From positions 1 to 14,631 of IMG/VR virus record IMGVR_UViG_2671180727_000007: 14,631 bases of DNA, one strand, 5' to 3'. Origin of the DNA: a virus (Duplodnaviria > Heunggongvirae > Uroviricota > Caudoviricetes). Numbering within the stretch: the stretch's first letter is position 1; each line of letters opens with the position of its first letter. Under the pieces are notes generated by a model. It was not told where the DNA came from. It was given only the letters and a program-made list of their open reading frames with translations, and ran no database searches. A program made the position numbers and the translations under genes. Of the stretch, positions 4-98 are shown piece by piece.

Positions 4-98
4 GTGACCATAAGCTCTCCTGAATCAGGAGAGCAGATTACCCCCTGGATCTGATTTCAGGCGTTGGGTGTGGATCACTATTGCACCGTTCGTGACAG
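4..98. repeat. Left terminal inverted repeat, 95 bp, exact reverse complement of 14537..14631; contains a 21-bp perfect palindrome GCTCTCCTGA-A-TCAGGAGAGC at 14..34
   Basis: Direct comparison of the window start with the reverse complement of the window end: identical over 95 bp, diverging at 99 (partial AATAAA match at 100..105). Confidence 0.9.

Follow-up and report, generated by a model that had tools for sequence, protein, structure and literature searches.

Left ends of the insertion sequence IS100 bracket an SSU5/pHCM2-like phage-plasmid module at the two edges of a draft contig

IS100 is a 1954-bp insertion sequence of the IS21 family which occurs in Yersinia pestis, E. coli and Shigella, and for which the alternative annotation IS100kyp is also in use. 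Its recombination enzyme is a DDE transposase, i.e., neither a serine nor a tyrosine recombinase. Both IS100 itself and contig breaks within multi-copy insertion sequences are routine. Across the IS21 family, the ends of the elements carry several repeats (L1/L2 on the left, R1/R2 on the right), insertion is accompanied by 5-bp direct repeats, and target specificity is weak (PMC10122671). In two other transposable elements, the leader of the transposase mRNA folds into a hairpin which masks the Shine-Dalgarno sequence, as shown experimentally for IS200 tnpA (PMC4513863) and reported for ISPpu9 (PMC8450116). Here, we describe how a 14,631-nt stretch of DNA (hereafter “the window”, always at its full length), which starts and ends with the same sequence in opposite orientation, compares to these systems.

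Identity of the inverted arms

A repeat finder placed the inverted arms of the window at 4-105 and 14530-14631 (102 nt, 99% complementary), with a spacing of 14,424 nt. Direct reading of both ends, together with this output, bears out the statement of the initial annotation that positions 4-98 are the exact reverse complement of 14537-14631, and a perfect inverted repeat of 95 nt within 14.6 kb cannot arise by chance. The 21-bp palindrome noted within each arm, GCTCTCCTGA(A/T)TCAGGAGAGC, was likewise recovered by the repeat finder (family D8) at 14-34 and 14601-14621, the A or T at its centre being the two strands of a single sequence.

These arms are the left ends of two IS100 copies. When compared to a complete IS100 read in plasmid p120899_76 (L002; 1954 bp with istA and istB, and the 5-bp duplication TCCGC on both sides), the reverse complement of window 1-97 is identical to IS100 positions 1-97, and window 14538-14631 is identical to IS100 positions 1-94, so that the visible 97 and 94 nt show no difference from the reference element. 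The true biological repeat unit is 1-97 plus 14538-14631, rather than 4-98 and 14537-14631: base 98/14537 and the matching stretch 100-105/14530-14535 are flanking phage-plasmid DNA, similar by coincidence.

Within each arm, the left terminal inverted repeat is followed by the leader and the start codon of istA. In copy 1 (1-97, minus strand, IS positions 97 to 1, pointing leftward out of the window), the terminal repeat L1 lies at 70-97 and the inner GATCCA repeat L2 at 46-51, both on the minus strand, with the istA ATG at 11-9 on the reverse strand. In copy 2 (14538-14631, plus strand, IS positions 1 to 94, pointing rightward out of the window), the corresponding features are found on the plus strand at 14538-14565 (L1), 14584-14589 (L2) and 14624-14626 (istA ATG). 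Since both copies have their left, istA-proximal end inward, their orientations are opposite and each extends out of the window, which holds only the ATG of istA and the next 5 to 8 nt, istB and the right ends being outside the contig.

Both arms terminate in the IS100 left end and start with 5'-TG. In the numbering of the element, this left end consists of the tip TGTCACG, GTGATCCAC at positions 20-28, the inner GATCCA at 47-52 and the istA ATG at position 87; the right end has the same tip, GTGATCCAC again at position 20, and an inner GATCCA copy at R56-61. The ends of IS100 thus display the multi-repeat L1/L2 and R1/R2 architecture, and these repeats are predicted to be bound by IstA. As judged from the sequence, all visible features, namely the sequence itself, the tip, the repeat architecture and the empty sites in relatives described below, assign the repeat to IS100.

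Used as a query, window 1-98 matched 3644 records from complete E. coli genomes and 1730 PLSDB plasmids at 100%, and where matches were annotated they corresponded to istA of the IS21-like element IS100. Counted by genome, an IS100-end match was present in 2725 of the 5426 complete E. coli genomes, with a median of 1 copy and a maximum of 26. Species-representative genomes scanned for the IS100 tip yielded only three metagenome-bin contigs. As a separate observation, the IS100 right end (L002, about 640-654) finishes in TTGACA, and if two IS100 copies were joined head to tail over a 2-bp spacer, the junction would, on a reading of the sequence, yield TTGACA-17 nt-AATAGT with window 14538-14560. 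This arrangement is the junction-promoter layout described for IS21 tandems.

Insertion sites in the phage-plasmid backbone

The 14.4 kb between the arms (98-14537, plus strand) form an SSU5/pHCM2-like replication and recombination module, delimited by collinearity with its relatives. Over window 97-14538, E. albertii plas1 (NZ_CP099899) and many plasmids of E. coli are collinear with the segment at 99.8% identity; these plasmids are circular, of about 107-113 kb, IncFIB type and non-mobilisable. Identity reaches 98.8% with Escherichia phage Cyrano (OV696614) and 79% with Salmonella phage SSU5, and the segment belongs to the SSU5/pHCM2 phage-plasmid group. Relatives such as E. albertii plas1 and phage Cyrano share the gene order of the window from the end of dnaE to sbcC, but lack IS100 at either of the window's sites.

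Gene calls within the segment, based on the annotation of relatives and on Pfam assignments, include a cspG-like cold-shock gene with a cspA thermoregulator leader, a gp32-like single-strand-binding protein, a 5'-3' exonuclease, a RecA-like protein, an SPFH (Band 7) protein, a Rep3-type RepA with iterons, an SbcD-like metallophosphoesterase and a truncated SbcC-like AAA ATPase. The cspA thermoregulator RNA (Rfam RF01766) is matched over its full length (185.7 bits) at 380-798 on the minus strand, overlapping the cspG-like ORF (405-716, minus strand), and window 380-798 is ~75% identical to lambdoid phages (e.g., Tritos and 2H10). The RecA-like gene at 4904-5977 encodes 357 aa and is intein-free, whereas in many close relatives it contains a LAGLIDADG or Hint intein, which results in a 779-aa reading frame (L116, 5008-7347). 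Two iteron fields (8720-9200 and 10298-10920, core CTATAGTGG(A/T)T) flank the Rep3-type repA (9205-10260, minus strand); among their repeats are the 21-bp tandem arrays 10324-10422 and 10705-10824, and the upstream field is mostly in the opposite orientation. Finally, an identical 17-nt segment comprising a ribosome-binding site and start, AAAGGAAAAACACATGA, is found at 7664-7680 and 11891-11907, preceding two unrelated genes (a 91-aa ORF and the SbcD-like gene).

On the left, IS100 adjoins GTAATAAAG, a stretch that overlaps the TAA with which the phage-plasmid dnaE terminates; the element is situated between this stop codon and the terminator common to dnaE and the convergent cspG-like gene. 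The hairpin noticed beside the left arm is real, and corresponds to this intrinsic terminator: the terminator scan places its stem at 108-129 (9 pairs, with a minus-strand T-run), shared by the convergent pair and assigned to neither strand. It is backbone DNA outside of the repeat, being also found in an IS-free relative (L001, 3011-3033). On the right, IS100 directly follows ...CCGTTTATTGC inside the sbcC-like gene, which is cut at codon 440 of 638. As assessed by translation and comparison with the 638-aa relative, the resulting ORF (13219-14610, plus strand) retains 439 native codons, identical to that relative at 439 of 439 positions, followed by a 24-aa tail encoded by IS100.

The initial annotation had pointed to the homologous sbcC position of related replicons as informative, and this comparison indeed reveals that the repeat is absent there and the gene intact (L001, 16116-18032). 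The same IS-free relative is uninterrupted across both sites (...aataagtaataaag... and ...tttattgctcttatc...). The target duplications are predicted to be GTAAT on the dnaE side and ATTGC on the sbcC side, and the outer junctions would read ...AATAAATAAGTAAT/TGTCAATGACGGATG... on the dnaE side and ...CATCCGTCATTGACA/ATTGCTCTTATCGCC... on the sbcC 3' side (slashes marking the boundaries).

Neither junction was found by exact search in IMG/VR, and no PLSDB record covers either of them. The right junction was absent from JGI metagenomes, and a 300-bp BLAST query revealed the left junction in none of the complete E. coli genomes. Four apparent matches to the right junction, obtained with a 300-bp BLAST query against complete E. 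coli genomes, instead represent another IS100 insertion, located 96 bp away.

The inner flanks of the two copies resemble each other. Read outward from the IS tip, these flanks are GTAATAAA and GCAATAAA (window 98-105 and 14530-14537), a mirror-image match at 7 of 8 positions. Among 94 independent IS100 left-end flanks, an equally good match was seen in 1 of 4371 pairs, and a position-weighted estimate gave P = 7.6e-4 for a 7/8 match (overall range about 2e-4 to 8e-4). The same 94 flanks outline a target bias within the 5-bp duplication, with position -4 rarely G, position -3 A/T in 76% and position -2 a purine in 76%; the window's inner flanks, ATTAC and ATTGC, both fit this weak bias. An IS100 target consensus was considered as the cause of the mirrored flanks and rejected, as the bias is limited to positions -4 to -2, covers just a part of the similarity and leaves the TTTATT match unaccounted for. 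Two independent insertions do not predict a 7/8 match, which we treat as a coincidence.

The palindrome in the istA leader

The 21-bp palindrome belongs to IS100 itself and sits about 64 nt in from the tip of the element. In a minimum-energy fold of the istA mRNA leader it would form a hairpin with a 9-bp stem and a 3-nt loop (14-34 on the minus strand and 14601-14621 on the plus strand), the isolated palindrome hairpin reaching -15.7 kcal/mol. The 3' arm of this stem, CAGGAGAGC, holds the Shine-Dalgarno motif GGAG, and the ATG follows 5 nt past the stem.

To follow this hairpin across related elements, the IS100 left end was aligned with those of a 96% variant, an 86% relative and two ISSen3 copies (74% identity). 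Across these left ends, all 54 of the 54 pair cells are standard pairs, even though 4 of the 9 stem pairs vary (one compensatory U-A to C-G change and three G-U wobble changes). In a control where the partner was shifted by 1-3 columns, pairing fell to 33-65%. The wobble changes destroy the DNA palindrome yet keep the pairing of the sense-strand RNA, which argues for an element of the istA mRNA and against a site for DNA-protein binding or crossover. Given that only four sequence types are represented, this covariation support is modest and not conclusive. Overall, the palindrome most likely acts at the level of the istA mRNA and not as a DNA site.

The hairpin of IS100 resembles those of IS200 tnpA and ISPpu9 in that the transposase 5' UTR of all three contains a stable stem encompassing the Shine-Dalgarno sequence. 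The comparison has its limits, as the IS200 hairpin has been tested whereas that of IS100 is predicted from sequence and fold, and our analysis brought to light no antisense RNA for IS100. By analogy, the hairpin probably keeps IstA translation low, including translation from transcripts that enter the element from outside.

Contig ends, alternative arrangements and significance

An exact-sequence look-up of the sbcC::IS100 fusion protein identified a single contig, CYAB01000045.1 (14,631 bp), in the draft assembly GCA_001283145.1, and the window is this entire contig. The short-read assembler failed on the multi-copy IS100, so that the contig ends about 95 nt into each copy; the symmetry of the edges thus stems from a draft contig broken inside a repeated element. 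The bracketing is part biological (two real junctions) and part an assembly effect (the truncation). Many whole IMG/VR contigs with the IS100 tip also end 28-127 nt inside the left end, and their end points cluster at common k-mer sizes (e.g., 55, 77, 98-101 and 127). The two IS100 portions of the window are unequal (97 vs. 94 nt), a difference which a pure k-mer overlap does not account for and which may come from post-assembly extension or trimming. We consider it very probable that the window represents IS100 left ends bracketing an SSU5/pHCM2-like module in opposite orientation, brought to the edges by the contig break. Each copy is visible over 94-97 nt, and both are inferred to be full length and to reside on one molecule.

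One alternative would be that IS100, segment and IS100 together are functional, either as a composite transposon with a plasmid replicon, or as a module inverted or relocated with respect to the remaining phage-plasmid, by intramolecular replicative transposition of IS100 or by RecA-mediated flipping between the inverted copies. Inverted IS copies around a segment are indeed the formal layout of both a composite transposon and an IS-mediated inversion, the module holds a complete Rep3-type repA with its iterons, and the mirrored similarity of the flanks is unexplained. However, composite transposition would need two right ends, neither junction occurs elsewhere in PLSDB, complete E. coli genomes or IMG/VR (nor the right one in JGI metagenomes), and the fusion protein is carried by one contig only. 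As for inversion, we reason that the four junction sequences expected from this pathway are also those of two simple insertions, which makes the contig uninformative either way; because simple insertions and IS100- or RecA-mediated inversion give identical junctions, the orientation of the module relative to the remaining phage-plasmid is unreadable from short-read contigs. An inversion breakpoint, among the options of the initial annotation, may underlie the orientation of the segment, but nothing requires it. On balance, a functional unit of this kind seems unlikely. We give still less credence to the two junctions lying on different molecules or replicons, each with a single IS100, and being merged by the assembler: short-read graphs do collapse such variants, and the window contains no physical link between its ends, but coexisting IS-free sites would branch the graph and normally break the contig at the junction instead of ~95 nt into the IS, and the interior is a single uninterrupted, collinear 14.4 kb.

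The remaining explanations see in the repeats the termini of a linear replicon, the sites of a site-specific inversion or a fold-back chimera, and have the symmetry alone in their favor; with arms that match IS100 at every base and stop precisely at its tip, they are already refuted by the IS100 identity, to the point of being barely worth entertaining. A linear-replicon terminus, as once proposed, is contradicted by the circular relatives, in which the segment is internal, and by the continuation of the repeat into a full IS100 in thousands of records. Similarly, the suggestion of a fold-back artefact does not survive the observation that the canonical IS100 tip marks both junctions to the base while the interior is collinear with relatives. 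Among the called genes of the window, Pfam assignments revealed no protelomerase, serine recombinase or tyrosine recombinase domain. A site-specific invertible segment (of the Hin/Gin/Cin or shufflon type) was rejected because the arms are IS100 ends, none of the called genes has a recombinase domain, and the variants of the palindrome keep RNA pairing while losing the symmetry of the DNA. The proposal of a mobile segment was partly right, in that mobile DNA does end in these repeats, with its recombinase gene (istA) outside the window; the mobile units are, however, the two outward IS100 copies and not the 14.4-kb segment, and the palindrome is not a crossover site.

Beyond the window, IS100 is found in the sbcC-like gene of another phage-plasmid, p503025_100 (NZ_CP025894), and of three near-identical records (100.5 kb). 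In this type, the IS100 of the sbcC-like gene has the same orientation as in the window, but is inserted 96 bp further downstream with a deletion beside the IS; the region in question is L003 5497-5620 (NZ_CP025894.1, about 81.5 kb), to be compared with window 14538. A second IS100 in opposite orientation lies in the tail-fibre region, along with IS2 and an IS3-family element. As the p503025_100 type has an initiator of the RepB family, unlike the Rep3-type initiator of the window, its sbcC insertion is an independent event, and the inverted IS100 pairs of p503025_100 and of the window together show that IS100 colonisation of this phage-plasmid group is recurrent. The sbcC-like gene may be an insertion hotspot, or there may be selection for the loss of the plasmid SbcC. 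With equally oriented insertions 96 bp apart in two lineages, it is tempting to speculate further that the sbcC-like gene is a preferred or selected IS100 target and that the inverted pair made the module an invertible or transposable cassette, through which a decaying phage-plasmid would shed phage genes or seed new plasmids, although we hold this extended scenario to be quite improbable.

Taken together, both the element and the type of plasmid are known, and it is a contig break that makes them stand out. In practice, perfect inverted repeats at both ends of a draft contig should be compared with known insertion sequences before anything else. For the IS100/ISSen3 group, the leader alignment lends modest support, by covariation, to an istA leader hairpin that would mask the Shine-Dalgarno sequence. 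For the isolate, the sbcC-like nuclease subunit of its phage-plasmid has been lost through IS100, in keeping with the known IS-driven decay of phage-plasmids.
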